Virus record (IMG/VR): IMGVR_UViG_3300009314_000003
Coordinates: 32,001-96,000 of that record
DNA: 64,000 bases
Origin: a virus
Strand: one strand, 5' to 3'
The notes below the pieces were generated by a model. That model was not told the origin of the DNA and ran no database searches. It saw only the letters and a list, made by a program, of their open reading frames with translations. The translations under genes were made by a program, and so were the position numbers. This document shows positions 3,294 through 37,400 of the stretch, in pieces. Position 1 is the stretch's first letter. Each line of letters starts with the position of its first letter.

Positions 3294-4175
3294 CTGTTAA
3301 TCTCGGCCGCGCAGGAGATTGTACTCGCCGACGGTTCTTTTCACAAGGCCGGCGACTTAATTGGTTGTGGTCCTGTTGAGGGTTTGGGTTGGTTGGTTTC
3401 TTCTCCGCGAAAGCAAATGATAGAGATTTATCCTGTGGAAGAGGGTTCATCCGCTCGACTTTGTGGTCTTGTGAGCTCAAATGGCCGCAGTATCTTATGT
3501 GGGGAGGAGACAGAACTCTTAGGGGCCAAGGGGTGGATATCCTTCGCCGAGCATGTTAGGCAATATAAAAGATGTCGATGGTTAAAAATATATCCCTATC
3601 TCATTAACAGAATTAATAACTATGGGAGGGATGAGCGTGGTCAGGAGTGGGTGGATGCCTTTGTTGCCTCTCTGGTTGAGCTGTCACGTCGTAGTCCGCA
3701 TATGGGCGAGCGTGGTACTATCACAATTCCTTCCTACCTTGGTAAATTAAATGAAGCATCCCTTAATCGTTTTCTGGGGGCCTTATTTAACGCATTCTCC
3801 AAAAGTAAGAGAACTGCCTTTATAAGAAGGATTGATTATGAGAGTCAGCAGCGATTATTTAGCTTATTTACGAGGACTGGCTCCTACAAAACAACCAGCC
3901 GGGGTAAAAGCAGGATTTATGAGGTTGGTATACCTGGCGCTAATTTACATAAGAGGCCTGATGAAAACACCAACAACAGAGGAGGTTGGTGGCCATCACC
4001 AAATTTATTAATCCGTACAAGTAATATTGATGATTCTGTAGTTACTTGTTGTATAAACCGCTATAGGATAGTTGATCGTGATATATATGAGACCCTTGTT
4101 GAGGTCCGCACCCAAATTGGTAATTTCATTGATAAGAGCTTCATATGTCGGACCGAAAAGATCAATCCAGCCTAG
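3294..4175 (+). CDS. Free-standing degenerate intein-like protein (Hint-like ends, eroded LAGLIDADG-like core); start uncertain
   Basis: The frame is open upstream of the track's 3384 start. Block A-like ISAAQEIVLADGSF, block B-like SSNGRSILCGEETELLGAKGW, block E-like IPSYLGKLNEASLNRFLGALF, block F/G-like LVEVRTQIGNFIDKSFICRT. Catalytic residues are absent. Confidence 0.55.
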   Translation: MLISAAQEIVLADGSFHKAGDLIGCGPVEGLGWLVSSPRKQMIEIYPVEEGSSARLCGLVSSNGRSILCGEETELLGAKGWISFAEHVRQYKRCRWLKIYPYLINRINNYGRDERGQEWVDAFVASLVELSRRSPHMGERGTITIPSYLGKLNEASLNRFLGALFNAFSKSKRTAFIRRIDYESQQRLFSLFTRTGSYKTTSRGKSRIYEVGIPGANLHKRPDENTNNRGGWWPSPNLLIRTSNIDDSVVTCCINRYRIVDRDIYETLVEVRTQIGNFIDKSFICRTEKINPA

Positions 4176-14314: not shown

Positions 14315-15658
14315 ATGAAGATACTAAGTACAAACCGTACTGGCGAACAGATCCTTAATGATCTTGTCTACAATGTCTTCACGAATAATGGCGTGGTTGG
14401 TCTTCCAAAAGAGGATAAAACCATTGTCCAGCTCGGTTTTAATGATCTCTTTTCCATCCCTGAGGAGTTAAAGAGTATTCCGGAGATTGCTGACACGGTT
14501 ACTAGTAAGGACCTAACAAGGTTCATTGAAACCTCAATTTCCCGTGTAGTTAGAGATGCTATTGAGCCTGAGCTCGTTGTTGTGCCAAATCTGTTTACCG
14601 ATATTCGGTATGAAGGACCTGGGCGACAGGTTGAGATTGGCTCACTAGGTGCGTTTCATGCGGCTGAGGTTCCAGAAGGCGGGGAATATGAAGAGGTTGA
14701 ATTTAACTTTGGTGAGGGTCACATGATCCAGGTAGGTATCTCCAAGCATGGCTTGAAGATGCGTGTTACTGAAGAAGTTATAGAAGACAATCTCTTTGAT
14801 GTTTTCGGTCTCTGGCTTCGTATGGCTGGCCGAGCTCTTGCAAGACATAAGGAGGAATATGGTATCAAACTCGTAAATGATATGGGTATTGATGTATTTG
14901 ATAATTCCTCTCCATCCACAGCGGATATAGGTTCTTGTTCCGGCCGCGGTATAGATGGCGCACAGAATGGCTCCATGACGGTAGATGATATTTTTGAGAT
15001 GTATGCCTATCTCTATCTACGAGGTTTTGCGCCTGACACCTTATTGATGAATCCATTATCCTGGAAGGTCTTTATGACGGATCCAGAAACTCGTGAGATC
15101 ATTTTTAAAGGTGCTACACTGGCAACCAACAGACTCCCTGGCGGAAGCTATTCCAAAGCATTTGGAACCGGCTTTGCCGGTCTGGGTGCTCGGACAACTG
15201 CCACGGGCCGTGGATTCGACAGCTCAACGGGTGGTGACGATAATCGTGTAGCTGGTAACAATCCATTTGTAACGTCCCTTAATCCTTTAGGGGCCACATT
15301 TCAGATTGCTCCAAGCTATCTCCCGTCACCTCTTAGGGTGATTGTATCGCCACACGTAACATATAAGACAGCTACTGTAGGCTCTGCAACTAAACATGTA
15401 GCCGATATCATTATGGCTGACAGTTCACGCTGCGGTCTTTTACTCAGTAAGGAAGAACCTTCCATTGATGAGTGGAACGATCCGGAACGCGATATTCGGG
15501 CTATGAAGATAAAGGAACGTTGGGGTATGGGTCTGTTTGAACAGGGTAAGGGTATTGCCGTTGCTCGCGATGTTGTTATTGAGAAGAACTATGTCTTTGA
15601 CAATGTTAATCAACAGGTGTTATCAGCCCTTAACCATAGCTCAGCTATTGTAGACTAG
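14315..15658 (+). CDS. Major capsid protein
   Basis: 447 aa; HK97-fold-type motifs AAEVPEGGEY, KHGLKMRVTEEVIEDN, MAGRALARHKE, PDTLLMNP and MKIKERWG; GAGGAG RBS. Confidence 0.9.
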   Translation: MKILSTNRTGEQILNDLVYNVFTNNGVVGLPKEDKTIVQLGFNDLFSIPEELKSIPEIADTVTSKDLTRFIETSISRVVRDAIEPELVVVPNLFTDIRYEGPGRQVEIGSLGAFHAAEVPEGGEYEEVEFNFGEGHMIQVGISKHGLKMRVTEEVIEDNLFDVFGLWLRMAGRALARHKEEYGIKLVNDMGIDVFDNSSPSTADIGSCSGRGIDGAQNGSMTVDDIFEMYAYLYLRGFAPDTLLMNPLSWKVFMTDPETREIIFKGATLATNRLPGGSYSKAFGTGFAGLGARTTATGRGFDSSTGGDDNRVAGNNPFVTSLNPLGATFQIAPSYLPSPLRVIVSPHVTYKTATVGSATKHVADIIMADSSRCGLLLSKEEPSIDEWNDPERDIRAMKIKERWGMGLFEQGKGIAVARDVVIEKNYVFDNVNQQVLSALNHSSAIVD

Positions 15659-18983: not shown

Positions 18984-19168
18984 TATCGTTTTCCATAGGG
19001 CTGTGATTTAGATCATACAAATGTTATCATCATCATTATCATCATTATCACACCGTCCTGTTTTGAGTGATGTAAGTGTCAATGTGATGATACAACCTTG
19101 TTGTTCATCAGTATGTGCGTCAATATATGAGCTGATTTATTACTCTCACAGCAGGAGTAAGAAATAGA

Positions 19169-21826
19169 ATGGCACTTCCTAAAATCACAAGTGTTTTGAC
19201 AGATGGAAATCTGGAACGGGCCGAGGGTAGTGGTAATCGTAGTAAACATATTACCATTATAGGTACAGCTGTAGATGGGCCAATGTATACATCGGTGACG
19301 ATCCGAGATCTGGATCACGCTGAGAGCATTTTTGGTACCTTCAATAGAGGAACTCTTCTCCGCGCCATGAATGAGGCATGGCAAGCCCAGATGGATAGCG
19401 GTAGAACTCCGTACATCTCTGGTGTGCGTGTAGGTGGTCTGGTTGCTTCGAGGGCTGATCTTGAGATTGAGAATAATAACTCAGAAGTAGCTCTAAAGCT
19501 TGAGGCTCTTTACCACGGTAGTCGATATAATGACATCGTTATCACCGAGGATAGTTCTAATGATGCTATCAAGATATACAACCCCGTATCTGGTATTTGG
19601 TCAACCTTCAAATATAACTGGACAAATTCCAACGCGGGAGGCGTAGATGCGCATAACGTCGTTGAACTGGCAAATGCCATCAATGCTGATAGTAATCTGA
19701 ATGGTATTTTGGTTGCATCGGTTCCTGAGATGATTGCTACGTTTGAGGTATTTGCTAAAAGCGGCGACGCTTTTGTGTCTTCCTCAAATAGTAAAACCAC
19801 TATCACCCTTAATGGGGCCGGTAGTGGCGATCTAAATGCAGACACTCTTTACCTGGACGGGTCATCGAGTACCACTACCATAGACGAAGTTCATAGACCA
19901 ATTGTAAGAGTGTCAAAGGTGTATGCTATTACTGATGGTGGTATCGAGGTTCTTGAGGGCGGAAGTTCTCAGGCTACGACAGTACATCTACCTCTGGCGG
20001 GCCGGAGTGATACTCGTTTTGATACCCTTCTCAATGTTATTGATGAGAACGGGACATTAGGCGAGCTAGCTCAAACCCCGGATGATTTGGCCATAACTTC
20101 AGAAGGGTATTTCAAAGTCCGGAATCAGGGCATTGGTATACTTGATCTTGATGTTGGTAGTATTACCTTCGATGCTCCCCTTGCTATTGCCGATGCCGAT
20201 ACTTCAAGTAATTTAAGTGGTACAGCATCAGCCTATACTACGGCTAAAAATTATGGTGCTGGTTACACTGCAAGCAATCTTGGAGCAGAATTCCAAGGCT
20301 TAACTAGATGGACAGTAGCAGGGGAAGAAAGTTCCTCTGGTACTTATCCTATCAAAGTTGAGTGGAAGGATCCCTCTGCAGGACCTAATGCGTGGCAGGC
20401 CGCCAATCTAGGCGACACAGCCTGGGCCCTTAGTTGGGCAAACGATCAAGCGACACTTACGTTCCCAAGCAGTACACCGGACAGGTATGACGGAATGGAG
20501 ATTAGAATCTCTTTCGATTCATGTATTGGAGTGTTCAATGAGAAGTCAACCCTGGCCGGGGTTGAGGAGTCTTCATCTTCCTTCCTGGATTACTTTGTGC
20601 GAGGTCAGGAAATCATCTTTGGTAAAGCCCTACCACATAACTTGGCAGTTCGTTACGCCAGGGTACAATACTATGAGCTCGGCTCCACAATATCTCTAGA
20701 AGATGCTGAGGCCGGCAAATTTAGTATTACTGGTGTAGGTATACAACCAGGTCCTGGGGGCGGTGCTCTTGGAACTAGCGATAGTACTATCGGCTTTGAT
20801 GTTATATACGCTCAGGATGAATTCAGTTTAAGTAGCTCTCAATCTCTTCTAGGTGGTACCTCCGGTACTGGTTTATCGGATAGTACTCTCTACAGTGAGC
20901 TAAAGGAGGCCTATGATAATCTGGATGCATTTGATTTTGACCTCTTAATCACACCTGGTGCATATATTGACTCCACAAAAGGTGGTTACAATGTACTAAC
21001 AGGCGCTCCAGAAGAGGTGAACGCAGGATTCCATGAGCTTATGGATGAGTTTCTCTCCGGTTATAATGGAGATGCCCGTGGTATTATGGGTTTCAAACCC
21101 ATAGTAGGTACTGGTATCAATAATACCATCAGCAGGAAAGATGTTGCCAGTCGTGTGTCCAAACTAACTGTAGTTGATTACAGTGATAATCTTCGTGCGG
21201 CTAACTTTCTGGCTAACTTCGACTCCAAATATATGATGGCTATTGATCTAGAACCTATCGTTATAGCTAAAGGCTCCCGTTATACAACTACGGGCGAAGC
21301 AATAGTTGCTGGTCACCTGGCAATTCTAGAGCCAGAAGAAGCCCCTTATCTTAGCTCCTTAACAGGTACACAGGGTCTTCGTTATCGTTACTCTAGTAAA
21401 GTAGCTGATGGCCGTAGTCAACTTGATGCACTAAGCGACATGAGAATAATAGGGGCCAGGATCGATGGTTACAGGGCGCGGCTCGTTGATGGACCGTCCC
21501 TTGCTGAACCTGGATCTGATTACGAACGCTGGACAACCTCCAGCATCGTGGCTGCTGTTATGAAAGATGTTCGCGCTGTTGCCGAACCATTCCTCGGACA
21601 TGTCTCTAATTTGCCTACACTACAGGCACTGGAGACTACTCTCCGAAGTAGACTTAATCAGCGAGTACCAAAGTCACTTTCCGCGTATTCCTTTAAGATC
21701 AAGTCTTCTCCGGCACAGAAGGTTGTTGGCATCATCGAAATCCCACTGACATTGGTACCTGTGTTTGAAATCCGTCAGATAAAGGTTACAGTTGTACTTA
21801 AGGCTGACGCCTCGACTCTGGCGTAA
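19169..21826 (+). CDS. Contractile tail sheath protein
   Basis: IIGTAVDGP, AESIFG, LLGGTSG, AEPFLG and the C-terminal LTLVPVFEIRQIKVTV; AGGAG RBS. Confidence 0.92.
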   Translation: MALPKITSVLTDGNLERAEGSGNRSKHITIIGTAVDGPMYTSVTIRDLDHAESIFGTFNRGTLLRAMNEAWQAQMDSGRTPYISGVRVGGLVASRADLEIENNNSEVALKLEALYHGSRYNDIVITEDSSNDAIKIYNPVSGIWSTFKYNWTNSNAGGVDAHNVVELANAINADSNLNGILVASVPEMIATFEVFAKSGDAFVSSSNSKTTITLNGAGSGDLNADTLYLDGSSSTTTIDEVHRPIVRVSKVYAITDGGIEVLEGGSSQATTVHLPLAGRSDTRFDTLLNVIDENGTLGELAQTPDDLAITSEGYFKVRNQGIGILDLDVGSITFDAPLAIADADTSSNLSGTASAYTTAKNYGAGYTASNLGAEFQGLTRWTVAGEESSSGTYPIKVEWKDPSAGPNAWQAANLGDTAWALSWANDQATLTFPSSTPDRYDGMEIRISFDSCIGVFNEKSTLAGVEESSSSFLDYFVRGQEIIFGKALPHNLAVRYARVQYYELGSTISLEDAEAGKFSITGVGIQPGPGGGALGTSDSTIGFDVIYAQDEFSLSSSQSLLGGTSGTGLSDSTLYSELKEAYDNLDAFDFDLLITPGAYIDSTKGGYNVLTGAPEEVNAGFHELMDEFLSGYNGDARGIMGFKPIVGTGINNTISRKDVASRVSKLTVVDYSDNLRAANFLANFDSKYMMAIDLEPIVIAKGSRYTTTGEAIVAGHLAILEPEEAPYLSSLTGTQGLRYRYSSKVADGRSQLDALSDMRIIGARIDGYRARLVDGPSLAEPGSDYERWTTSSIVAAVMKDVRAVAEPFLGHVSNLPTLQALETTLRSRLNQRVPKSLSAYSFKIKSSPAQKVVGIIEIPLTLVPVFEIRQIKVTVVLKADASTLA

Positions 21827-21884
21827 GGTACAAGATGGACTGATCTAGAGCTAGTCTGGTCCAGAAGAAACTAACTCAAATCAG

Positions 21885-21910
21885 AAGGCCCCTATAACCT
21901 GGGGGCCTTT
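21885..21910 (+). terminator. Probable intrinsic terminator after the sheath gene
   Basis: AAGGCCCCTA-TAACC-TGGGGGCCTT followed by a T-rich tract. Confidence 0.6.
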
Positions 21911-21936
21911 GCTTATTAAAGGGGTATTACCGCTCT

Positions 21937-21948
21937 GTGACATAACTA
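21937..21948 (+). promoter_or_regulatory. Candidate phage promoter motif GTGACATAACTA (copy 2), upstream of the tail tube gene
   Basis: Identical 12-mer to 12279-12290; both have TTAAAGG 23-24 nt upstream. Confidence 0.5.
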
Positions 21949-22030
21949 ATTACAAGAGCTCAAGGGCCGGCAGTTAATACTGCATAGAGCTGAGGGCCAT
22001 TAACTTCTGAAACAAGGAGATGTAAATACA

Positions 22031-25000
22031 ATGAGTAATGTGTTTGATGTAAGTACAAACGATGTTGCTAAGACATTTACGACCTTCTCTGGTTCGGACA
22101 TCAAAGCGGTATTCGGAAATGTGGAGATAGGCAATCTGCAAGGCCTTTCACTCTCGGTAAACCGTGAGGTGAGGCCGGTGTTTGTGATGGGTAAATAGAT
22201 GATTTGCCCTTTCCTGCTAATATCGGGGAAATCTAAGGGCCAGTGGGCCTATGGCAATCCCGAGGCAAGCCCATTATGTGGCAGCCGTAGAGACTTGATC
22301 AGCAATGATCAGGCTCCGTTGAGAAAGACCCTAATACAGGGTAACGGAAGCAATACGCAGGAGCTGTCTAAATGAACGATCAAACACATCAGCTATTGAA
22401 TGGTAGTCTGTTGGGTGACGGTTACTTGAGCAAGTGCCAATATCATACCGCCAGTGATGGATACACACGCTGGCATAATAGTCGTTATGAGGAAGATCAC
22501 AAAGAAGATGACAAGTCCTACCTTGAGTGGAAGGCAACAATCATGAGTCAGGACTTTGATGTGAAGTGGGTATATAAAGAGGCACGCACGTTGGGCATTA
22601 AAGGACATGAGGCGGACTGTGGTCCTGTTTATCGAATTTACACCAATACGTCTACTGAACTGTCCGATCTACGGCAGATATGGTACCCAGATGGCCAGAA
22701 GATAATACCGGACTATCTGGATGACTTTGACTCCTCGACACTGACTTCCTGGTACTATGATGATGGCACCTATCATGTTCACCGTCAGATAATAGAGATC
22801 AGCACCGATAGTTTCACCCTTGAGGACGTCAAACGCCTCCAGGGATGGCTTAGAGACCGGTGGAACATTGAGGCTGCCATCAAGCGCAAACCAGGACACG
22901 CTATTAGGCGGTACTACCTTCATCTTAACAGGGAAGCCTCCAAGAGGCTCCTCAGTCTAGTCGAGGATGTACCAAGTATGGAACGCAAGAAGCCTATGGG
23001 CTGGGATGGAGTCTTTGATCGTAGTGAGACACCATCCAACTTTCATAGGCGGCTGAACGCTAGGCTGTCCTCAGGTGAGAAGCGGAAGCTAATAGTCCTC
23101 GACCTACAAGAGTTCTATGAACAGACTGGGCCGTGGGATGGTTTCCCAGCCGTAAAGTATCACTACACTGAGGATTGCATAAGTCCAACCCTGGCCATAC
23201 GCCACTTCGGATCATTCAAGGTGGCTCTCGAGTCGGCCAGACTGCCAACTAACTATATTTAGACAGCAAGAGATAGTCCATACCTACCGAAAGGTTAGGA
23301 TGAATTGAAATCAGATGCCGTGAGTTACTCGAAGGGTAAATAGATGTTTGCCCTTGTAAAAGCTAGCTCGTTCGAGGAAACCTACAGGGCCGTGAGGCGC
23401 CAAGGCAATCTCGATGCAAAGACGGTCCCGGGGACTTGGTTACCGGGATGCAGAGGCGGTAGAGACTGCACGCTAGCCAGCTGGGCCTCCAAGGGTCAAA
23501 CAGCTGAAGGAACAGTCCAGGCCCATGGGAAACCATGGAGAATTACTGAAACGCGGAATCGCAGGGTTGAGATGAATTGGCTCTGCTTAAATCCGGCTTA
23601 TATCGGTGAACGCCGAGAGGCTAATACCGAGGGGTATCCGTACCTGTGATGCAAACAATAGGAACTAACATAAATGTCTAGTGGAAAGTGGAAGAAGTAC
23701 AGATCCTGTCCTATTACTAGAGACGGGGTCAGAGTACTGTATGGGACTTTGCTAGGAGACGGATCCTTATTTAAGGATCCAGAGTGTGTGAATTATAGAT
23801 TTTCAGTAACACACTCTAATCGTCACTCAGATTATATACAGTGGAAACAGTCTATACTTGGACTTCCATCGAGTATTTGGAATGATGAGAAAAGAAACCT
23901 AGTAAAACTTCAGTCACTAGCCTGTACCGAGCTTACTTCTATACATACCAGCTTCTACAATGGAGCTGTTAAACGAATTCCACGTGACATTGACTTAACT
24001 GAACTGCTGTCACCTTTATCGATAGCTACCTGGTTCATGGATGATGGTAGCTACGATGTTGAGGAGGCAGTAGTTATATCCGCGTATGCTTTCTGCGAAG
24101 AAGATATGCTTCGTGTAGCAAAATACATGGATCACGTTTATGGGATTAAGATCAATGTCTGGAGTGATAATCGTGTTTACATACGCAAGGAATCACATGA
24201 CAGGTTCTTTAGTATTATCACTCACTACGTAAGTGAGGTTCCTTCTATGCATTATAAGGTACGCACTTGGATAAAACCAGGTGTCTCCCAGGTGAAACTC
24301 CTGGGGTATGACGAGCCCTGTAGAGACTATCCCACAGCCGTGGGATCATGGGATGGATTTATCCGCCCATGAAACGCCGGACTTGAACTAATAGAATATG
24401 AACTGGACACAAGAAGAAACTGAGATCCTGAGAGATAATTACTCCTGGAATCCAAGGACAGCTATGTTACTTCCTAACAGGTCTGCACATCAGGTAATAA
24501 AGAAGGCTAATAATATAGGCCTGAAGAGAGATGGGCGAGGTAGGATAGATACTCTAAGGGCTGACTATTTTGATCATTGGACCCCTAACATGACATACAT
24601 CCTAGGATTCTTCACAGCGGATGGAAACATATATGCACCACCAACCCGGGTTGATGGGGTTAGTGTTTATAAGATCACATTTGCCCAAAGTGACCCATAC
24701 ATACTAGAACTAGTATGTGATGAGTTGGGTATCTCAAGAGGGTATATTTATGGACAGCAAGGGCTTAATGCCTTACCTCAGGGCGGGTACCTGAATATGA
24801 TACATCCGATGTATAGGGTAATGTTTACCAGTAAGTATATGGTAGAGAGATTGAAGGAGCTTGGCTTGTCTGAGCGTAAATCAACACAACTCAAGAAAGT
24901 ATCCGTACCTAAGAAGTTCTTCGCTCACTTCTTGAGGGGCTACTTTGATGGAGATGGTTGTCTTCAGATATCCAATAACACCACACCAAGTATCACATTT

Positions 25001-28000
25001 ACTGGTGGATCGAGGCAGTTTCTTAAATCAATCGAGGCCCGAATCAGTCGTTATTGGGATCTCCCAGGTGGCAGACTAAGGCCCAGGAAAAGAAACAAGG
25101 TCTGGGATCTGCGGTATCGTAAGGCTACTTCTCTCGAGATCTTGAAGAGAATGTATGAGGGCCATCCAGATATTCTATGCTTACTGACTAAGTACAACAA
25201 ATATGCGGGTGTTATAGGTGATGATGTAATTGATATACCAGAAGTATCATACAATTACCGAGTCTATGACACTGGCACACAAGTTCAAGAAGATATAGTC
25301 CAGGAATAGAAGATAACGTAAGTTATTGATAATTCAGCACTTATATTGACCATGTTTGACCGCCAAGCCCTACACGACATCATGCGGAGTGCTCGCTATG
25401 TAGCCAAACCAGATGATTGGGCAGGGTCGGCGGGTGTTTCTCGTGCTTTAGGCGATGCCTCAGATGTAGGTAGTGACTACACCCTGGAGTCTCCATCATA
25501 TAGTGACCAGATTCCACCGTTCGATATTACACTCGTCGGTAAACCTAAATAAGAGATGAGTAATCTTAAATACGATAAAGAACAGTTAGTATCTGAATCT
25601 CTTATTGAACAGCCGCTCTCAGAAGCGATTCTGAGTGAAACACCGGGTGAATTCAGTGGATCCCTAAGTACCAGTCAAATCTGGGATATGGCAACACTGA
25701 GCCAAGCCACGCTGGGCTTTGATAGCGTGGAAGGTGCAACGACTACATCTCTGAGTCCCAACAATAACGAGATGCACGAGCTCCCGGCACCCCTTCGGGG
25801 TGATGATATAGTCTGTGCTTCAGGGAAACCTGAAGAAGTAGCGGATAAAGAGCCGCTATGGTAACAATACAGGTTAACGAGTTTGGGTCAGCGACAACAA
25901 TGCGAATACATGGAGTTCACCTCATTTCAGAGGGAACTGGTGTGTCGGTTGACAATCAGCCGCTTTCCCAAGAGATTGGGATTGACAAACTGGGTGAATT
26001 CGGAGGAAGCCTAAGTGCTATTGCATAAGGTAACTCCGAGCCAAGCCGTACTGGGCTTAGATAGTACGGAAGGTGTAGAGACTAGCTTGAATCATATAAT
26101 AATAGTTCACCAAAGTGTGTAACGAAAATGAATAAAGACAAACGTAGCATACTCTTAGGTATGTGTATAGGAGATGGTTACATAGGTGTCAGTACAGACA
26201 AACGGTGGAATACCAAATCCTACGTACTTAGGCTATGTCACTCAGTGAAGCAGAAAGCATATCTAGAGCATAAAACCGAGCTCCTCCATTCTGCTTTAGG
26301 TGGCAAGAAACCTAGAATCGTTGAGTATAACAATAATGGATACCCAGGTGTGAAGTGTAGCAAGACAAATAAGTACTTTAAGGTGCTTAGAGATTGGTTG
26401 TACAAGGATGGGGAAAAGGTTGTTACCCGTAGAATCCTTGATATGCTTACTCCACAAGGTATCGCAATATGGCATATGGATGATGGTAGTTTGTATACTA
26501 AACGCCGCAACGGAAAGGTTCACGCTTGGGAGTTATGTACCAGCACATATGTAAGCTGGGATGAAAACCAAGTAATAGTGGACTATTTTCGTGATGTCCA
26601 TGGAATACGCTTTACAATAGTCAAGGGAAAAGGAAAGTACAGGATTCGCTGTGGTACAAAAGAGGCAAAGAAGTTTATTGAGATCGTCAAGCCATTTATA
26701 ATACCATCAATGTTGTACAAAGTCCGAATGATCTCTGACAATAATGATTCAAGCCAAGAGCGCCCAGCACCCCACGTGGGTGATGATATAGTCCGGACTC
26801 CAATGAAAGTTGGAGAGATAAGGTTTAAACGGCCTTATGATAACAAGTCGTGATGACAATGTCCAAGAGGCGACACAACTGCCTCTCTTCTCGAGTAATT
26901 GAGATGCCTAAACCAGGCTTATATCAGGGGAGGCTAAGTCCTACGGGATATGCTAATCCTGAGGGGTTCACGCCCTGCAGAGACTCATCCACTATGGATG
27001 GATCCGGAGTGCTTTGTCAGCCGGATAATACGCCTGGCTCCCACTTTATGTGGGATGATGAGATAGTCCATACCTACCGAAAGAGTAGGAGTAAATGCAC
27101 AAATGACGTTTGTGGCTTTACCCAAGACGGGCTGGGTCACATTAAACCGTGCTTAATCGGGGAACCCTTACTGGGGAATCCCGAGGGGTGTTTCGTCCCG
27201 GTTACTGCCGGGAGTCTGACAAGCCCTGTAGAGACTGAATAGTATGAAACTATGGACTAACAAAGAAGTTGAGATCCTTCACGAGAACTATAGCTGGAAT
27301 CCGCGTATTGATGAACTATTACCGGATCGTCCCAGACGTCAGATTGTGAGTAAGGCAAACCGAGAGGGCCTGAAAGTAATGGGACGCGGACGTGCATGGG
27401 GCTTAAAGGTAGACTTCTTTGACCATTGGAGTGAGGAGATGGCTTATGTTTATGGCCTGATCGTTGCTGATGGGTGTATAATGAAGCGTAAGGATAGTGG
27501 TATAATGGTTATTGATATAACGCTAAATGATGAAGACCACATTAGGCGATTAGCCAATTTGTTGGGCGTACCAGAGCGTGTTTATAGTAACAGTGATGGT
27601 ACATATCATCTGAGGTTTGTTAGCAACTACATAGCCAAAAGACTGATGAAGCTTAAGGTTCCGTTTCGTAAGTCTCTTGTCCTTGGTAAGCTTCCTGTCC
27701 CTAAGAAGTTCTTCTCTCACTTCCTACGTGGTTACTTTGATGGAGATGGATCCTTCAGTATTAATGCTAAGGGCCGAGCTCCTATGCTTAGTTTCACATC
27801 AGGTTCATACAATTTCCTTCGATGGATTCAAGCAAAGTTAAAGAGGTATTATGGCTTTCCAATGGGTCGTCTTCGTAATAAGAAAGGCACCAATACATGG
27901 AATGTCTGGTATAGGAAATCTGCATCTATATTCCTAATGGCAATAATGTATAGGGATAAGGGTGACCTCTTTCTTCGCAGGAAGTATAACAGATACATTA

Positions 28001-28206
28001 GTTATCTATCCGATCAAGGACATACTATTCGAGAAAAGGAATTCATTTCCCTTCTAAACGCACGGCTACCTCAGAAAGAGGTAGAAGAGATAGTCCATTC
28101 TCTTGAACAAGAGAAGCAGCAAGTAACATGGTGGAAACCAGTTGAATCCGACGCGGACAAACTAGATATCGATGATATTTCAGGTACGATAGTTGGATTA
28201 CAATAG
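22031..28206 (+). CDS. Tail tube protein (206 aa) split by 7 group I introns; join(22031..22192,23308..23337,23549..23567,25338..25540,25873..25949,26851..26870,27098..27117,28117..28206)
   Basis: Exons total 621 nt and stay in frame. The product MSNVF..TFSGSDI..SVNREVRPVFVMG/KSDAVSYSKG/KRGIAG/SLILTMFD..SDQIPPFDITLVG/VNEFG..ISEGTGVSV/DDNVQE/AQMTFVA/QQVTWW.. is colinear with paralog 28247..29155 across every junction. AAGGAG RBS; follows the sheath. Confidence 0.9.
22193..23307 (+). mobile_element. Group I intron 1 (1115 nt), endonuclease in L8
   Basis: P1 GGGT|AAAT / ATTTGCCC with U.G; P10 TGATTT/AAATCA; P3 TCCTGC/GCAGGA; R GTAGAGACT; S GAGATAGTCC; P8 GCTGTCTAAAT/ATTTAGACAGC; terminal G. Confidence 0.92.
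22372..23262 (+). CDS. LAGLIDADG homing endonuclease (intron 1)
   Basis: LLNGSLLGDG and LTSWYYDDG; C-terminal RHFGSFKVALESA helical repeat. Confidence 0.9.
   Translation: MNDQTHQLLNGSLLGDGYLSKCQYHTASDGYTRWHNSRYEEDHKEDDKSYLEWKATIMSQDFDVKWVYKEARTLGIKGHEADCGPVYRIYTNTSTELSDLRQIWYPDGQKIIPDYLDDFDSSTLTSWYYDDGTYHVHRQIIEISTDSFTLEDVKRLQGWLRDRWNIEAAIKRKPGHAIRRYYLHLNREASKRLLSLVEDVPSMERKKPMGWDGVFDRSETPSNFHRRLNARLSSGEKRKLIVLDLQEFYEQTGPWDGFPAVKYHYTEDCISPTLAIRHFGSFKVALESARLPTNYI
23338..23548 (+). mobile_element. Group I intron 2 (211 nt, no ORF)
   Basis: P1 AAGGGT|AAA / TTTGCCCTT; R GGTAGAGACTG; S GGAACAGTCC; P9 CCATGG-GAAA-CCATGG; terminal G before AAACGCGGA. Confidence 0.9.
23674..24372 (+). CDS. LAGLIDADG homing endonuclease (intron 3, P6 region)
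   Basis: VLYGTLLGDG and IATWFMDDG; the 3' end reads through the R element (EPCRDY). Confidence 0.9.
   Translation: MSSGKWKKYRSCPITRDGVRVLYGTLLGDGSLFKDPECVNYRFSVTHSNRHSDYIQWKQSILGLPSSIWNDEKRNLVKLQSLACTELTSIHTSFYNGAVKRIPRDIDLTELLSPLSIATWFMDDGSYDVEEAVVISAYAFCEEDMLRVAKYMDHVYGIKINVWSDNRVYIRKESHDRFFSIITHYVSEVPSMHYKVRTWIKPGVSQVKLLGYDEPCRDYPTAVGSWDGFIRP
24398..25309 (+). CDS. LAGLIDADG homing endonuclease with N-terminal Myb/SANT-like domain (intron 3, L8)
   Basis: WTQEETEILRDNY; YILGFFTADG; HFLRGYFDGDG. Confidence 0.9.
   Translation: MNWTQEETEILRDNYSWNPRTAMLLPNRSAHQVIKKANNIGLKRDGRGRIDTLRADYFDHWTPNMTYILGFFTADGNIYAPPTRVDGVSVYKITFAQSDPYILELVCDELGISRGYIYGQQGLNALPQGGYLNMIHPMYRVMFTSKYMVERLKELGLSERKSTQLKKVSVPKKFFAHFLRGYFDGDGCLQISNNTTPSITFTGGSRQFLKSIEARISRYWDLPGGRLRPRKRNKVWDLRYRKATSLEILKRMYEGHPDILCLLTKYNKYAGVIGDDVIDIPEVSYNYRVYDTGTQVQEDIVQE
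25541..25872 (+). mobile_element. Group I intron 4 (332 nt, no credible ORF), extended P1 loop
   Basis: CGGT| pairs with GCCG at ~25612 across an AATAAGAGAT/ATCTCTTATT stem; P GAATTCAGTGGA; R GCAACGACTA; S GATATAGTCT; terminal G. Confidence 0.88.
25950..26850 (+). mobile_element. Group I intron 5 (901 nt), endonuclease in P7.1 loop
   Basis: P1 CGGT|TGA / TCAGCCG with U.G; P10 ATCA/TGAT; R GTAGAGACTA; GCTTGAATCAT/ATGATTCAAGC stem around most of the ORF; S GATATAGTCC. Confidence 0.9.
26128..26853 (+). CDS. LAGLIDADG homing endonuclease (intron 5)
   Basis: ILLGMCIGDG and IAIWHMDDG; the stop codon is the first 3 nt of exon 6. Confidence 0.9.
   Translation: MNKDKRSILLGMCIGDGYIGVSTDKRWNTKSYVLRLCHSVKQKAYLEHKTELLHSALGGKKPRIVEYNNNGYPGVKCSKTNKYFKVLRDWLYKDGEKVVTRRILDMLTPQGIAIWHMDDGSLYTKRRNGKVHAWELCTSTYVSWDENQVIVDYFRDVHGIRFTIVKGKGKYRIRCGTKEAKKFIEIVKPFIIPSMLYKVRMISDNNDSSQERPAPHVGDDIVRTPMKVGEIRFKRPYDNKS
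26871..27097 (+). mobile_element. Group I intron 6 (227 nt, no ORF), non-canonical splice junction
   Basis: P1 AGAGGCG/TGCCTCT; P3 CCAGGC/GCCTGG; R CTGCAGAGACT; S GAGATAGTCC; P9 as in intron 1. Boundary is ambiguous by 1-2 nt. Confidence 0.8.
27118..28116 (+). mobile_element. Group I intron 7 (999 nt), endonuclease inserted after P7
   Basis: P1 TGTGGCT| / GGTCACA with U.G; P10 GCTG/CAGC; P3 CCGTGC/GCACGG; R CTGTAGAGACT; P8 CTACCTC/GAGGTAG; S GAGATAGTCC. Confidence 0.9.
27244..28206 (+). CDS. LAGLIDADG homing endonuclease with N-terminal Myb/SANT-like domain (intron 7), in frame with tube exon 8
   Basis: WTNKEVEILHENY; YVYGLIVADG; HFLRGYFDGDG; its last 29 aa are the tube C-terminus. Confidence 0.88.
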   Translation: MKLWTNKEVEILHENYSWNPRIDELLPDRPRRQIVSKANREGLKVMGRGRAWGLKVDFFDHWSEEMAYVYGLIVADGCIMKRKDSGIMVIDITLNDEDHIRRLANLLGVPERVYSNSDGTYHLRFVSNYIAKRLMKLKVPFRKSLVLGKLPVPKKFFSHFLRGYFDGDGSFSINAKGRAPMLSFTSGSYNFLRWIQAKLKRYYGFPMGRLRNKKGTNTWNVWYRKSASIFLMAIMYRDKGDLFLRRKYNRYISYLSDQGHTIREKEFISLLNARLPQKEVEEIVHSLEQEKQQVTWWKPVESDADKLDIDDISGTIVGLQ

Positions 28207-28246
28207 AAAGTCAGTAGACAAGCGTGTATGGACAATATAAATAAAG

Positions 28247-29155
28247 ATGCCTTACGGACCATTTCAGTTTGGTAGTTTAGAATCGGGGCAAACCTTCTCC
28301 GGGGTAGATATTATTGCTACCCTACGGGGACCAGATATACCCGGAGCTATTGCTATGACAAACCTAAACACCGTAAGTTACTCTATACACAGGGAGAAGG
28401 CACCCGTCCGTCGACTCGGGCGGGTGTACTCCCAAGGCTACACCAGAGGCCCCCGCACAATCGCCGGCAGTATGGTGTGGATAAACTTTAATAAGGCAGC
28501 TCTCTGGGAACTAATTAGAACGGCCCCTGGCGAGGAATCGCCTGTTCACTCCATCATGACAGATCAGCTCCCCCCTTTCCATATGGGCTTTACCTTTGTC
28601 AATGAGAATGGGCTGTCAGCCTTTATGAATCTCTTTGGCATTGAGATTGTGGACGAGGGAATGGTGCTGGGTACGGATGAGGCTTACCTAGAAACGACCA
28701 TGCAATATGTAGCAGAGGATATTGACCTTATGTACCCAGGAGATGATATTAACGAGAAGTGGGATGAGCTTATGCGGCAAGGTATAGACAAACAACACCA
28801 TGAAATCTTTAATAGTAAAGAGGAAGCCAACCAGTTTGCTGCTGAGTTAAGGGGTAAAGGAATAAGAATAAATGTTGGGAAAATAATGAGTGGAGAAGAT
28901 AAGGATAAGTGGAAGGTGTACTTTTCCTTAACAACAGGTGAAGAGATGTTCAACGTCTTAGGTCCATCAAATAAAGACTTTGTTCGTATGATGAAGGCAG
29001 CAGGTCTACTTGATTTTGATCCTTGGGGAGAGAGTCTTGATAAGAAGGATCTTGTATACTATGACGCCCATGGAAATCCACACTACGATACAACCCATAC
29101 ATATCAACACTATACACCACCACCACCTGAACCTGAAAATGGAGATGATGGTTAA
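28247..29155 (+). CDS. Tail tube paralog (tube initiator-like) with C-terminal extension
   Basis: TFSGVDI, SIHREKAPV, TRGPRTIAGS, DQLPPF, VNENG and QYVA parallel the spliced tube protein. Confidence 0.8.
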   Translation: MPYGPFQFGSLESGQTFSGVDIIATLRGPDIPGAIAMTNLNTVSYSIHREKAPVRRLGRVYSQGYTRGPRTIAGSMVWINFNKAALWELIRTAPGEESPVHSIMTDQLPPFHMGFTFVNENGLSAFMNLFGIEIVDEGMVLGTDEAYLETTMQYVAEDIDLMYPGDDINEKWDELMRQGIDKQHHEIFNSKEEANQFAAELRGKGIRINVGKIMSGEDKDKWKVYFSLTTGEEMFNVLGPSNKDFVRMMKAAGLLDFDPWGESLDKKDLVYYDAHGNPHYDTTHTYQHYTPPPPEPENGDDG

Positions 29156-30258
29156 TGTACTATAGCGGAACACAAGCTACAGCTTGGGTGGCCAGTAAAA
29201 AAGGTAGCCGGCGGCTTACATTATTTGAATTAGATGTAGCCTCCTTCCAATTCAATGCCTCTGTAGTTAAGATGCCACTCTATGGCTACCGCTCCAAGAC
29301 TTTTGATGCCGTAGCTGTTGGTGAAAAGCTGATTCAAGGCCAGATGATGATTAACTTTAAGGAAGCAGATCAACTGGAGCTTCTTGAGGAGGAGATAACG
29401 TTTGAACTTACCCTCGAATATCAGCGTGGGCTGGGCTCGGACTTCACCCAATATATCTTTGAGGATGTACACTTCTCCACCCTCTCCCATGGGGCCACAC
29501 CAACCGGGAATCCAATTATAGAGGCCGTTGACTTCATAGCTAAAGACTTCCGGGCCAAGACTACTGCGCGTCCACCTATTGCTATTCCTGAGGATGAAAC
29601 GAGCGTGGGAGAAGATTCTTTAGGTGGTGTTCCACCCCCGGAAGATATACCTTTAGATGTATTTGTAGATAAAATTAAAGCAGAAGCCTACCAACTTATT
29701 GTAGGTTCTATATCAACCCACGATCGGTTTTACATACCCTATAGTAGTATAACACGCAACTCACCTTTACTTACTAGTTATATAACTGACTATACAGTGA
29801 AGGCTGGAGATTTGGTATGTTGTCGGCCTTCATGTGGGGTTGAGACAAGAGGAGGCGATTTCCGGATAACGGTGGGCTCTAGGGTGAAGCCCCGCTGGGC
29901 TTTTCAAATTAAACAGGCTGTAGAGGCATCCATTTCGCCGGAGGGGACTTCCTCCTACATTGGCCCATTTAGTAGTAAAGAGGCCGCCGAAAGTTTCTAT
30001 GAATTCTATCCTATCTTTGGAAATGGTATGTGGATATGGGGTACTCGGGATGGTCCGATGGTGATCATAAAGGGAAATACTAGATTCCCTGATTTTGTTG
30101 TGTTTAAAGATTCGCAGGAGGAATCATTGGGGGTCATAAGTAATCAGCTGGGGGAGATTATGTATATAAACTCCGATGATATAGACGACTTACTCCATAA
30201 TAGGACGACTAAAGTAGAAATACTTAATCACTTATTTGCCCACCTTGTCCAATCATAG
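29155..30258 (+). CDS. Second tube-fold paralog / baseplate-tube junction protein
   Basis: YYSG, KMPLYGY, AVGEKLIQGQMMINF and NPIIEAVDFIAKD follow the tube motif order; TAATG coupling. Confidence 0.65.
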   Translation: MYYSGTQATAWVASKKGSRRLTLFELDVASFQFNASVVKMPLYGYRSKTFDAVAVGEKLIQGQMMINFKEADQLELLEEEITFELTLEYQRGLGSDFTQYIFEDVHFSTLSHGATPTGNPIIEAVDFIAKDFRAKTTARPPIAIPEDETSVGEDSLGGVPPPEDIPLDVFVDKIKAEAYQLIVGSISTHDRFYIPYSSITRNSPLLTSYITDYTVKAGDLVCCRPSCGVETRGGDFRITVGSRVKPRWAFQIKQAVEASISPEGTSSYIGPFSSKEAAESFYEFYPIFGNGMWIWGTRDGPMVIIKGNTRFPDFVVFKDSQEESLGVISNQLGEIMYINSDDIDDLLHNRTTKVEILNHLFAHLVQS

Positions 30259-31490: not shown

Positions 31491-34400
31491 ATGCCGGATC
31501 AGAGAGAGACATTCGAAGAACTACAGCCACAGGAAGGTGGTGGGGCGCTGAAACAGCTTGCTGGTTTAGGCCTTGCCCTTGTAGGCTGGGGTATAGGCCT
31601 CACCCTGGCCAGATTCGGATTTACGGCCGGTAAAGCAGCTGCCTTGAAACGGCTGGCTGGTATAAAGAAACCAGCCACAGAGGTTCTTAAGCGCTATAAG
31701 ACAGCAGCTATTTACGCACAGGACAAGGGAGGTAGCTTCTCCCATTTTGCCTCCAAGGCAGGTATGCCTGGTGGTAAAGCATTAGCGGACATACGTTATG
31801 CGGCTGAGGAATCTCCTATAATCAAATCCTTTAGGACCTCAACTAAGAATAAGAGTATACTACAGAAGGTTGGAACCTACCGTAGTTTCCCCAGGGGTCA
31901 GAGAATAGAACTTGGACGGGGCCTTGCTGCTCACTACGGGCGGGAAATGGCTTTTGTGGCCCCTACCTTCTATGTTGGGGAGCAGATGCTCGGACGTTTG
32001 GGTTGGGGTGCACACCAGAGGGATGCTCATCAAGGCCCTGCCTGGTGGAATATACCGGGACACGCTGTCAACTTTGCCAGGTGGCTTCCAGGATTCCTGA
32101 CAATAGACCTGGGTGCTCGCCTGGGCTTCGGCCTGGTTGGTGCGGCTAAAAGGGCTACATCAAATGCTGTTTTTAAGAGTCAACCCCTCCGAAGCCTTCC
32201 GGAGATAATTACCAACGCCCGCCGTTACGCCAAAGACAATCTAGATTCCCCAGTCGTAAATCTCATTACCAGCACACTCGCTTCGGTACGTGCCTTCAGT
32301 CATTTTGTGGGAGGTAAGACAGATGCCAATAACCAGACTAAGAGATTTGCCGAGCGTAGTTATAAAACTATCAGTGGGTATCGGCGCACAGGGGCTACTG
32401 CTAATGAGTATATAACCGAGAACACACGCCGTCTCTTTAAGGATTATAGACGCTTCAAGGCTAAGGCTAAGAGTGACCTGAAGCGGGCCTTATCCACTGA
32501 CTATACCAGGACTGGGGCAGAGTTAACTCGCTTATTTGATCCTGATGCTGCAAAGTCATCTCCTATACACATATTCAAGAAAGGGTTTGGCGTTGAGTAT
32601 GGAGGTATGAGGGAAATGTCCAGGCATCTGTTTGAGCGCAAGATGCCTCTGGTGGCCAGGTTATCGGGGTTGGAGAGCCTTCGGATGCGCCATCTCAAGG
32701 GGATTGGGCAATCCGAGGAGTGGAAACGCATCTTCAGAGTAATTTACAAGGGAATTCAATCGGCTAGGGAATTTGGTGATGCGGGAAACCAGGTTAGAAA
32801 ATTAGTCAAGGGTGGATATTCTGAGGGTGGGAAACGTTCCTTTGACGACCTCATTGTAGATTCCAGACTCTTCTTCGATCCCGTGACTAAGGAAGTTCGT
32901 AACCTCTCCGGTTTTACCTTTAAGGACATAATTGGCAGGTCCCTACACTATGCCTCTAAGCGCCTCACCTTTAACACACCCCTCGGTAAGATTGATCTGG
33001 TTAGCATCTTTGGCGGACGTGCTGTAGCTAGTTACGGTATGCCCAGTATAGTTCGCCTGGAGCATGGACGTGTACCGACCAAGGCTATTCAACGGTTGTA
33101 TGGTGTAGAGGTATATCCTACCCCAACAGACCCAAGCGCAAAGCAATTTACTCAGGTACTAGCAATAAAGGATAGGAAGAGCGGCTACACAGTCTGGGCT
33201 GATGTATATGGTGGTGATGCAAGTGGTGGAACTGGGCTGGAAGTGGTGGCAAGGAATATGAGTCTTGTCTCCAGTACCGATAGCACGAAGATGATGAGTG
33301 TCTATGCTATGCGGGAGAGTATGTGGCCTCCGCTTGATAAGAATGCACTTAATGAAAGATTTAAGGGTGGGGGTATAACCCCAACAATTAGAAAGTGGCT
33401 GCATAACAAGTTTGACTTGTTTGGGGGAGGAAAGTTTTATCCATCTGTGTGGGAACTTGCTCTACACCATATGCGCGGTGATTCAAGGGTGTGGACTATA
33501 TTTCATCCGGAGGGTCTTCCTGCCAGGGTAGCCAGCGGTATCTACAAGATGAAGGACCTTGCCGCCTCCGGCGGGCAGAAGGCAAGCTATCAGATTCAGT
33601 ATTTGGACGCCGCCTACAGGAAGGCGCGCACAGAAGCAAGTAAGCTGCTCACAAGGGATGATATACTGAGTCGTATATTACGTAAAGCTTATGAGGGAGA
33701 TACCATAAAACTATGGGGCGTTAAGACAGAATTCAAGATTAAGGATATCATTGATGAGAAGATTGTGGAGGACGGCTTACCAGAACCTCTGCGTCTTGTG
33801 AGGGAGATACTTAAAATTGATGAGACTGCATCCGCTGATAGTAGACTCGGGAGAAATCTTAAGCAGATCATAGATGAGTTGACAGATAGGATGCCTGAGA
33901 TGGGCGGTTTTCATAAGTATGTCTCAGAGGGAGGGGTTGGAGAGACAGCAACTGTAAAAGCCAAAAGGTTCCTGGCCGAAAGAGCTATACTACGTGAGGC
34001 GGATACCCTGGGGGCGGCCAGGCAACTAGATACTCCCCACGCCGGTGATACGGTTAAAAATATTGTAGATGATATCCTCGTGGCATTTGATGATCTGGCC
34101 AAGACAAATGCTATAACCACCAAGGACCTGCTGAAGGTTAAGATGGGAATGCAAGGGATAAGATGGGAGCACGAAGTACGCAACCTAGGCAGCCTGAGTG
34201 GAAAGAGTCAGATAACGGGGCGTGGTATTGATAAACTCTTTCAGGCAGTAGGCGAACGGGGCCTCATGGCTAAGGAGTATAAGGACGTTGAATCGTTATT
34301 TGACTTCCTCAGGAAGGCTAAGATGGAAGATCCAGAGCTGTGGGATTCCTACCGGCGTATGACGGGCAAGTTCAAAACCACAATGATGGTTGACTCTCAG

Positions 34401-37400
34401 AGACATGCCCTGGAGATGATGTCTGATGTATTTGGGGAGAGCCCTTACCTGCTCTTCGAAGGGGGCCCGATGGGATGGGCCAAGAATGTCTTTTCATGGG
34501 GTTATGATACCTTCGGACGTACTATGGACCTGGTTGGCCTGGGCTGGGATCGAGGACGTTTCCCGAAGTTCATGGGGAAGGATAGTATAGCCGGACTCTG
34601 GACCAAGAGATTCGCTCTCATGGGTGGTGTTGCAGCCGCTTACCAGACGGTAGACACTGTTACTGATACCACCCCCATATTTGCTGGTTCCTTGGCCCAT
34701 GACGAATTAGTCGCTGTTAGACATAAACGGACTGGACTAGTGAGCCTTGTCAAAATTGGTGAGTTTGTTGAAGATGGTAGAGCCGATAATAATCAATTTG
34801 AAGCCTGGACCAACCATGGCGGCAAAATCGGCTGGTATGACATTACCCAGGGCATTAGACATAAGCGTGAGACCACATTAGTGAGGGTTGAGTTAGAATC
34901 CGGTGCCGATCTATTTGTCACGGATAACCACTCTCTATTCACGGGATCGGAGAGCAACCTACAACTTCAAGCGCCAGAAGTTGGGAAGCATATTGTCGCG
35001 TTAGAGTCGCAATACCCATCAGGGGCAGGTATATCAAGAGTTGACATCAGTGATCTTGTAACGTCGTTGCCAGAGAAGCTGTACGTGGCTGTTGAGGACC
35101 CGTCCTTAAATCGTGGCAACTACAAACTCCGCGCGGATGCAGAGGATATTTGGGGTAGCAACTATGTGAGGTGGCTACGGGACAGGGTAACATATCATAA
35201 AGCTGTTTATAGGACCACCTATGAAGCCTATACGGAGTGCCCAAAGAAAGAGTTCACTAAGATTCGTCACTTTAGATCTCCTGTGAAGATCCCGTCTGGG
35301 TGGGAGCTAACTAGGGAGTTTGGATATGTGTTGGGTATGTTTGCTGCTGAGGGGTGTGCAACTAAGTCTAATGGTAGTGTGTATGGCGTTCTCTTCAGCG
35401 CCAAGGATTATGGTAGTCTTGGCCACAGATATAAAGGCCATATTAGATCAAGGCTCGTCTCTGCACTCAAGACTGTATTTCCAGATGCCAAGATTTCACA
35501 TTCTCACAAGAAAATAATACTCCACGGGTATCTATACTACTGGCTCTTCCATGACGTATTCAAGATGGGCCATGGCGCGTCCAATAAACGCCTCCCGGAC
35601 TTTGCACTGAATGGCCCGGAAGGGTTTAGGAGAGGACTCATTGATGGATATATTGATGGGGATGGATATCAGAAGCAGACCGGCGACACCATCAGACCGG
35701 CCGGTATTGGGAGTACTTCCCGCGAACTCGTCACTCAAGTTTATCTATTACTCAGGATGGAGGGCTGCCAGGTAAAGCTGTCTAGCAGGGAGCCAAGACA
35801 GGGACAAATTATTGATGGTCGCGTTGTTAATGGTAACTATCGAACCTATGCGATTACCATCAGGGATCTACACACAGATTTGTATGATGTATCAAACTCC
35901 AACCATGCTAGAACTATACGAAGTAACAGGGTCTCGTCCGCAATAGCAAGTATGTCCGCATGTGAGGAGCAGCCAGACTTTGTGTATGATATCTCCGTGG
36001 CTGGTGCGGAGAAGTTCATCGCTGGATTTGGTTTCTTGTATGCACACAACACTGCCCTCGATGAGGGGACTACGGTTTTCTTAGCTGACCAGGCCGTAAG
36101 GGCCAGGTTATTCGCCGGTTACGTATATGATATTACAGGCATCACGGATACAATGAAGTATCTTGAGGGTCTTATGCCGAAGAGTACACAAGTTCTGCCA
36201 GGGGCAGCCATGGGTTTCGCTATGGGTGGTGTACCAGGAGCAATTACCGGCGGTATTCTTAATGCCTGGACCCAACCGGTCCTCAAGGAAGGCCCCCTCT
36301 CCTTCCTCTCCCTCTTACCCCCCACTGCCCCATTTGTCTCTGACATGACTAAGAGCTTCAAGGAGCTACAGGATTTATATTCCGGGAGGGAGCTAGAAGC
36401 CGTTAGAAAAGGATCGGGCTGGCCTTTTGGTTCTGTTCCTATTGAGGGTTGCCTCACCGAGAGAACCGAGGTCTTAGTTGCTGACGGTGGTACCACGTCT
36501 ATAAGGGCCATTAAGGTTGGGGACTGTGTTATTGGGCCGGCTGGTCCCGTTCTTGTAACAGCTACCAAGGATCGATACACCACTCCTAGTGAACAACTCT
36601 ACACAATCATCTCAAGATACAACCGATCTGACGAGGTTGAAATTACAGGCAACCATCCTGTACTAGTAGCAGAAGATCCTTTTAGATGCTCTGTTGTATC
36701 CAATGGGACCTGTTCCCCGAGGCGTAACCAGAAGTGTCACAAATGCAGCCATCCGTATTGGCAGTCCTACAAACTCGGCTGGAAGCGGGCCGATGATATT
36801 ACCAGTGATGACTTACTAGCAATACCACGGCGCAGGTTCAATAGCAGCTCCGAACATGTTATCCGGTGGGTGGACTTCCTTGGTGATGATTATAAATACG
36901 TTGGTGGCCACGTCTGGGTTAATAGTAAACTGGGCACTTTTGGCAATGAGGCTCTCAGAGCAATCGTTGACCTGGTCCTGGATGATCTACCACATAAGGA
37001 TTCTGAGAAGCAACGTAGAATTGAGGCGATCGCTACACAGTCTGGCAGGATGCCCAGACAAGTTCGTCAGAAGATGGTAGATGTGCGGGACAGACTTAGA
37101 GATGGATGCCCTCGAGATTGCATTGATTATGTGGATCTTGGTTCCTTGGCAGAATATCTGCCACTCTCCTATGAGACGGGGCGCTTTCTTGGTCTTTACG
37201 CCGCCGAGGGGAGTGTGTGTGATAATGGCACTATATCATTTGCTTTCCACGCCAACGAAATAGAGTATCACCAGTTTGTTGAGTCGTGCATGCGCAGATA
37301 CTTTGGTTCGGACACAGTTACTCATGTGTCGGGCCCACAAACCGCAGGGACAAATCAGTGGGCTGTTCAATGCTTCTCCACACCTATAGCCAGCATCCTG

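Follow-up and report, generated by a model that had tools for sequence, protein, structure and literature searches.

Positions 22031–28206 of a 64,000-nucleotide (nt) stretch of DNA from a large, uncultured phage (the window; positions 32,001 to 96,000 of IMG/VR record IMGVR_UViG_3300009314_000003) lie between a tail sheath gene and a tail-tube paralog, and gene callers report only a 55-amino-acid (aa) open reading frame (ORF) and endonucleases there. A first-pass annotation had read this apparent endonuclease cluster as one gene; spliced alignment and a profile of orthologs agree in bearing it out. The locus is a single tail-tube gene of eight exons and seven introns, with the coordinates right to the base. 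Joined, the exons form an open frame of 621 nt, encoding 206 aa and a stop, spread over 6,176 nt of which 5,555 (90%) are intron, at a density of one intron per 89 coding bases (Table 1). We hold it very probable that a 0305phi8-36-like myophage has its functional major tail-tube gene here, with group I introns that are removed by splicing and have built up by homing, and with intron 6 cleaved at a G–C pair. If so, an essential, high-copy virion protein would be made via seven serial ribozyme reactions, one of them non-canonical.

Exons and joined frame

Uninterrupted orthologs were gathered as an independent test, and a profile was built from 22 close ones, the closest intronless ortholog being 71% identical over 185 aa. 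The joined protein matches this profile in hmmsearch with E = 2e-91 and is gapless at all seven junctions; it is likewise gapless at every junction against the downstream paralog (30% identity), as the first-pass annotation had stated, and the junction peptide given there is correct. Run without any U/G prior, codon-aware spliced alignment to the intronless-ortholog profile yielded seven introns of exactly these lengths, and mild U/G priors gave exactly these coordinates. Stronger priors fused introns 5 and 6, since no junction of intron 6 ends in U. The resulting single intron (25965–27089) was rejected as an artefact of the aligner under such priors, as it leaves an extra residue and ignores two complete ribozyme cores.

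The locus is 100% identical, over the reach of each contig, in ENA ERZ23499057 and JGI 3300013119, 3300013120 and 3300009128, and an assembly error is therefore excluded. The identical allele also occurs in strains whose next two genes are not the same. In three such strains (L165, L167 and L174), 19001–28765 is identical while 28766–29133 and 29416–29845, the C-terminal portions of the tube paralog and of the gene that follows it, carry many substitutions and indels.

An AGGAG ribosome-binding site precedes exon 1, and a promoter and terminator scan gave results at chance level. Micro-exons 3, 6 and 7 differ from those of relatives mostly by silent changes, with 0–1 amino-acid changes each, a pattern that would be expected of a live gene. 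Exon 8 is hidden from gene callers because the ORF of intron 7 reads into it and uses the tube stop codon. The locus shows how an essential gene can vanish from automatic annotation, leaving a 55-aa fragment and endonucleases.

Table 1 Features of the tube locus and of introns compared with it (window coordinates unless a contig is named)
Feature	Coordinates	Strand	Remarks
Tail sheath gene	19169–21826	+	phrog_16991 E 5e-35; matches gp139
Exon 1	22031–22192	+	162 nt; 83–85% aa identity with relatives
Intron 1	22193–23307	+	1115 nt; P7.1/P7.2, no P2; LAGLIDADG ORF in P8 loop
LAGLIDADG endonuclease ORF, intron 1	22372–23262	+	296 aa; PF03161 E 1e-23; phrog_11023
Exon 2	23308–23337	+	30 nt; frame kept if skipped
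Intron 2	23338–23548	+	211 nt; ORF-less; P7 with compensatory G–C pair
Exon 3	23549–23567	+	19 nt; equal 19-nt exon in L001, L168, L171, L172
Intron 3	23568–25337	+	1770 nt; two endonuclease ORFs, in P6 loop and P8 loop
LAGLIDADG endonuclease ORF, intron 3, first	23674–24372	+	232 aa; phrog_11023 E 9e-17; PF03161
LAGLIDADG endonuclease ORF, intron 3, second	24398–25309	+	303 aa; 40% identity with intron 7 ORF
Exon 4	25338–25540	+	203 nt
Intron 4	25541–25872	+	332 nt; ORF-less; long P1 loop; RF00028 77.3 bits
Exon 5	25873–25949	+	77 nt; equal 77-nt exon in L172
Intron 5	25950–26850	+	901 nt; LAGLIDADG ORF between P7 5′ strand and P3 3′ strand; RF00028 E 7e-6
LAGLIDADG endonuclease ORF, intron 5	26128–26853	+	241 aa; phrog_11023 E 1e-18
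Exon 6	26851–26870	+	20 nt; last base G
Intron 6	26871–27097	+	227 nt; ORF-less; full-length RF00028 match E 9e-9
Exon 7	27098–27117	+	20 nt
Intron 7	27118–28116	+	999 nt; LAGLIDADG ORF; 4-bp P10 favours 3′ site 28116
LAGLIDADG endonuclease ORF, intron 7	27244–28206	+	320 aa; through intron 3′ core into exon 8
Exon 8	28117–28206	+	90 nt including stop
Intronless tube paralog (gp141-like)	28247–29155	+	30% identity with spliced tube
Gut-phage site-2 introns with apparent terminal A	L137:8172–9102, L147:9218–9470, L155:8497–9427, L144:9015–11720		
Arg-Glu-site introns, distant tube homologs without U at −1	L151:8110–8488, L146:8131–9510, L162:8083–9462		also L145, L163

Group I introns and their endonucleases

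The claim that all seven introns are of group I type stands: helices P1, P3, P4, P7, P8 and P9, assigned by hand and checked for complementarity, occur in the correct order in each of them, around a P3–P7 pseudoknot core with a G–C guanosine-binding pair, and all seven end in G. P1, formed by the 5′ exon and an internal guide, places a U–G pair at the 5′ splice site in introns 1–5 and 7. P10 pairing with the 3′ exon amounts to 6, 5, 2, 3 (with one bulge), 4, 2 and 4 base pairs (bp) for introns 1–7 and is weak in introns 3 and 6. The Rfam model RF00028 matches introns 4–7, intron 4 alone above the gathering score, as well as the counterparts of introns 1–3 in relatives (68.8 bits for L172 site 3, E 0.018 for L172 site 2 and E 0.014 for L171 site 1).

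Five intact LAGLIDADG ORFs lie in four introns (1, 3, 5 and 7). By their motifs they are LAGLIDADG homing endonucleases, each open inside an intron loop and with cleavage activity that is predicted; the 3′ end of the first ORF of intron 3 extends into the ribozyme core. The ORF-less intron 4 has a cognate in L001 with an ORF in the P1 loop. Intron 3 was also considered as two introns or a nested pair, and this was rejected, as it has a single R/S pair and its cognates are short and single-core. Other in-frame 3′ sites for intron 7 gave poorer alignment and poorer P10. The first-pass description of the introns otherwise needs two refinements, namely the two ORFs in intron 3 and the base preceding intron 6, which is G and not U and had been missed. 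Exon 7 can form a self-hairpin (27098–27114; 6–7 bp, −5 kcal/mol), in competition with the P10 pairing of intron 6 and the P1 pairing of intron 7.

Identity and fold of the tube protein

The predicted spliced protein is, by best match and gene order, an ortholog of gp140, the tail tube of Bacillus phage 0305phi8-36 (52% identity over 75 aa and 40% over 57 aa); the order sheath, tube, paralog, next gene is that of gp139–gp142 in that phage (GenBank EF583821). The gp140 protein is annotated as a major structural protein and tail tube, and was itself seen in virions by mass spectrometry. A competing label, 'major head protein' (phrog_9206; RefSeq NC_009760 ORF140), is contrary to the GenBank note, which calls the gp140 family tail tube; we rejected it as a propagated mislabel, as the ortholog folds as a tube and the capsid gene is at 14315–15658.

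The first-pass annotation had named a tube fold as a test, and the evidence comes from AlphaFold models of the intronless ortholog L002/P0001 (71% identical); queries for fold and database searches were this ortholog or single exons. With 97 sequences AlphaFold gave a predicted local distance difference test score (pLDDT) of 79. In VIA-align this model matches Hcp and tail-tube chains with Z up to 8.7 and a root mean squared deviation of 4–5 Å, and nearly all of the 50 matches listed are tube-fold proteins; a first model had matched Hcp and tube chains in Foldseek with probability 1.0. The models thus point to the tube/Hcp β-sandwich fold. At the level of sequence there is a weak PF18906 match (E 7e-4), and a PDB sequence search with the tube profile gave no match. 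An intact major tube gene elsewhere, named by the first-pass annotation as grounds for rejecting its reading, did not appear: the 148 kb of genome examined holds no second copy.

A predicted G–C splice site in intron 6

The U–G pair at the 5′ splice site has been called virtually universal and critical for splice-site choice (PMC2504315, PMC11835236), and it serves as a filter in intron databases. P1 does form in intron 6, with G26870 as the final base of exon 6. The frame survives at this intron with four junctions, G|G, C|C, G|A or G|T, and with none that is U-ended. We predict that intron 6 is a group I-like variant in which a G–C pair, G26870 facing C26882, marks the splice site. Its terminal G27097 lies 8 nt after P9, as in intron 1, its closest relative.

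Introns with a GNRA-capped P2 generally keep a fixed distance between P1 and P2. In most lineages of canonical U–G introns with such a P2, the guide base facing exon position −1 is the 13th nt before the loop, a spacing seen in intron 5 of the window, in L149 and L152, and in two introns each of L158 and L159. The 13th base before the P2 GNRA loop of intron 6 is C26882, opposite G26870. This spacing favours the G–C pair without proving it. Taken together, the reading frame, the distance from P9 to the terminal G and the P1–P2 spacing favour cleavage after G26870 and a terminal G at 27097.

The same arrangement recurs in distant tube homologs (L146, L151 and L162), where an Arg-Glu codon pair is the site of an unrelated group I intron; in this intron the 13th base is a C facing G, the guide is conserved, the terminal base is G and RF00028 matches with E 1e-7. 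We put at slightly better than even the chances that a recurring class of phage group I introns splices efficiently at a G–C pair, its site set by P1–P2 spacing and not by the U–G wobble. Such a class would be missed by databases that demand U at −1, and the G–C site, if confirmed, would be a natural exception to the rule they currently use as a filter. No paper turned up in a literature search for G–C 5′ splice sites, a result that is no proof that such sites are undescribed. Ribosomal hopping over intron 6 was considered and rejected, as no stop stands beside the take-off codon and a full ribozyme core occupies the interval.

Intron distribution among relatives

Six of the seven sites (1–5 and 7) are occupied in independent contigs of relatives, in patchy combinations of 0–4 introns: sites 2, 3 and 4 in L001; 2, 3 and 7 in L168; 1, 2 and 3 in L171; 2, 3, 4 and 5 in L172; site 1 in L159 and L169; and site 2 in L100 and several gut phages. 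Most orthologs are intronless, and the others carry differing sets (0, 1, 2, 3, 4 or 7 introns over the whole family); the intronless L002 is sister to the three-intron L168 (support 91/86). The best match of introns 1, 3, 4, 5 and 7 is in each case the same-site intron of a relative. Intron 1 has its cognate in L171 and intron 7 in L168; introns 4 and 5 are 80% and 79% identical to the site-4 and site-5 introns of L172; and the short cognates of intron 3 in L168 (276 nt) and L171 (411 nt) share core pieces at 88–100% identity. The sites fall in conserved windows of the gene (p 0.019).

Site-2 introns of the related gut phages L137, L147, L155 and L144 apparently end in A, not G, by spliced alignment, and have a P1–P2 spacing of 14 nt. 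In L169 (9492 onward) and L170, site 1 is apparently filled by an intron unlike intron 1 of the window, and both contigs end within it. L171 has an extra insertion at about 11305–11500, after a conserved DQIP motif, at a site that is empty in the window; an L159 intron lies a few bases away.

Proposed splicing and accumulation of the introns

From the ribozyme cores and the joined frame we infer that all seven introns are spliced. In the mechanism we propose, a late transcript running from sheath to tube would be processed by seven independent, two-step, GTP-initiated reactions into the 621-nt coding sequence, each directed by the P1 guide, P10 and terminal G of the intron concerned, with intron 6 cleaved after G26870 through a G–C pair that replaces U–G. 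The two-step guanosine pathway is that of standard group I splicing (PMC3984707). Introns 1 and 2 have near-identical 5′ ends, guides and junctions, and the guide of each can pair with the 3′ exon of the other over 3–4 bp. Some in-frame skipping of exon 2 is likely, because the two introns share guide and junction sequences.

The accumulation is best read as a build-up of selfish homing introns at conserved codons within an essential gene, because five endonucleases are intact, the sites fall in conserved windows, presence is patchy and the genome is rich in LAGLIDADG inteins. The introns would have arrived one site at a time through endonuclease-driven homing. Because some of the exons are only 19–77 nt long, repair begun by one endonuclease would also copy the adjacent ORF-less introns 2, 4 and 6. 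A fully occupied allele would resist all the cognate nucleases while cutting rivals in which even one intron is missing, and this would work as a ratchet toward accumulation; nuclease-based competition between phages has been discussed (PMC11878797).

Alternative explanations

Every group I intron detected in the 148 kb examined sits in the tube gene, which makes this gene an intron hotspot but does not show regulation. The first-pass annotation had suggested that dependence on seven splicing events could gate the timing or stoichiometry of tail assembly. In a fuller form of this idea, the splicing steps have been retained for that role and might for instance sense GTP or translation state. 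The confinement of the introns to this gene would suit such a role, and a 'molecular on-switch' function of phage introns has been proposed, untested, in the literature (PMC11878797). A gate would predict conserved intron content, and the relatives show the opposite, with close ones carrying none or other subsets and with a three-intron allele whose sister allele has no intron; the idea is therefore unsupported. Homing alone explains the intact endonucleases and the conserved-codon sites, and an Rfam search of the window found no aptamer or other regulatory RNA. We consider a retained gate highly improbable. That there are no introns at all, and that a tube pseudogene has been broken up by free-standing endonuclease genes, would fit what gene callers report and has next to no chance of being right: the predicted ribozyme cores are complete, the frame is restored exactly and identical micro-exons recur in divergent relatives, which largely refutes it.

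The other doubts centre on intron 6. It might be removed in frame but in another register, with the cut following C26871 and C as the last intron base, or following G26872 (a G–U pair) and A as the last. Both registers leave the protein sequence unchanged; the 14-nt spacing of one lineage fits the C–G register, and the apparent terminal A of the related gut-phage introns offers a parallel for the second. Against them, P7 of intron 6 retains the canonical G–C guanosine-binding pair, its terminal G is placed exactly as in intron 1 and 13 nt is the commoner spacing, and we give other registers a very small chance. A similarly small chance attaches to a gene that is real but crippled or dead, in which intron 6 is cut at the neighbouring C–G with one extra base, truncating the last tube strands, so that the phage would need either the occasional correctly spliced transcript or a different tube gene. 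The near-universal, critical U–G pair (PMC2504315, PMC11835236), the 2-bp P10 of intron 6 and the incompleteness of the genome would accord with such a defect. Exons 6–8, however, are open and conserved, the same allele recurs in several assemblies, among them those of strains that diverge in the genes just downstream, the locus holds the standard sheath, tube, paralog position, the spacing rule supports in-frame cleavage and the same G–C arrangement, with a conserved guide, is seen again in a second lineage of introns.

Several observations weigh against a functional, seven-intron tube gene with a G–C site in intron 6. Introns 1–3 gave no direct match to RF00028 in the kind of check with group I models that the first-pass annotation had proposed. 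Site 6 is occupied in no relative found by a pattern search of viral contigs, blastn in phages or a C-terminal fragment search. One group of canonical site-2 introns has a P1–P2 spacing of 14 nt and not 13, the fold evidence comes from the ortholog model and not from the joined protein of the window, and the genome is about 77% complete.

Comparison with known systems

The locus is an extreme case of a known phenomenon, and the predicted G–C splice site is its most distinctive feature. The nearest parallel is orf142 of Staphylococcus phage Twort, a tail-tube gene that is interrupted by three group I introns and subject to exon skipping (PMC11878797, PMC10136302). In the Twort gene (Landthaler & Shub 1999), too, a micro-exon (23 nt) is flanked by introns that resemble each other, and its exon skipping resembles the exon-2 side product that we expect here. 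It differs in its three introns as against seven, in a tube of another family (142 aa compared with 206 aa), in splicing that is demonstrated in Twort and deduced here, and in the five LAGLIDADG ORFs of the present gene. A tail-tube group I intron is also known from BwK1 and the Bacillus cereus B4264 phage region, which are related to 0305phi8-36 (Tourasse & Kolsto 2008, PMC2504315). The BwK1 gene belongs to the same tube family, its intron lies where the gene is most conserved, and the presence of this intron varies among relatives; unlike the present gene it has one intron. Phage 0305phi8-36 shares the order of sheath, major tube, paralog and next gene, whereas its gp140 is intronless and longer.

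Essential or structural genes split by several group I introns also occur in crAss-like Zeta phages, with a capsid gene in five fragments (PMC7886860), in Jug phages (PMC12880540) and in Bastillevirinae (PMC11878797), splicing having been shown by RNA in the latter two; intein-rich genomes are a shared trait. Three to four introns per gene are reported there, spread over many genes, whereas here all those detected are in one 621-nt gene. In mycobacteriophages, the LittleE capsid intron and the BAKA tail intron (PMC3706429), at one intron per gene, show that the messenger RNA of a very high-copy virion protein can be spliced efficiently and that an intron need not limit assembly. The first-pass view that seven introns in a high-copy structural gene are exceptional therefore holds for the count, which more than doubles the highest found in the literature for a phage tube gene (three), and not for the kind of gene, for which these are direct precedents. 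As a compact natural substrate, the locus would lend itself to work on the order and yield of splicing, and on exon skipping, where group I introns surround exons of 19–30 nt.

Other insertions in the genome

An unannotated 263-aa ORF (3384–4175) overlaps the start of the terminase large subunit gene and contains a weak intron-profile match (3513–3597, E 5e-4) that is probably due to chance. The terminase gene itself (4145–6427) contains an intein (PF14890 match at about 4649–5011). A 4392-aa ORF in the tape-measure position (31491–44669) carries several LAGLIDADG inteins, and another intein-rich ORF lies at 140680–143037 of the genome.

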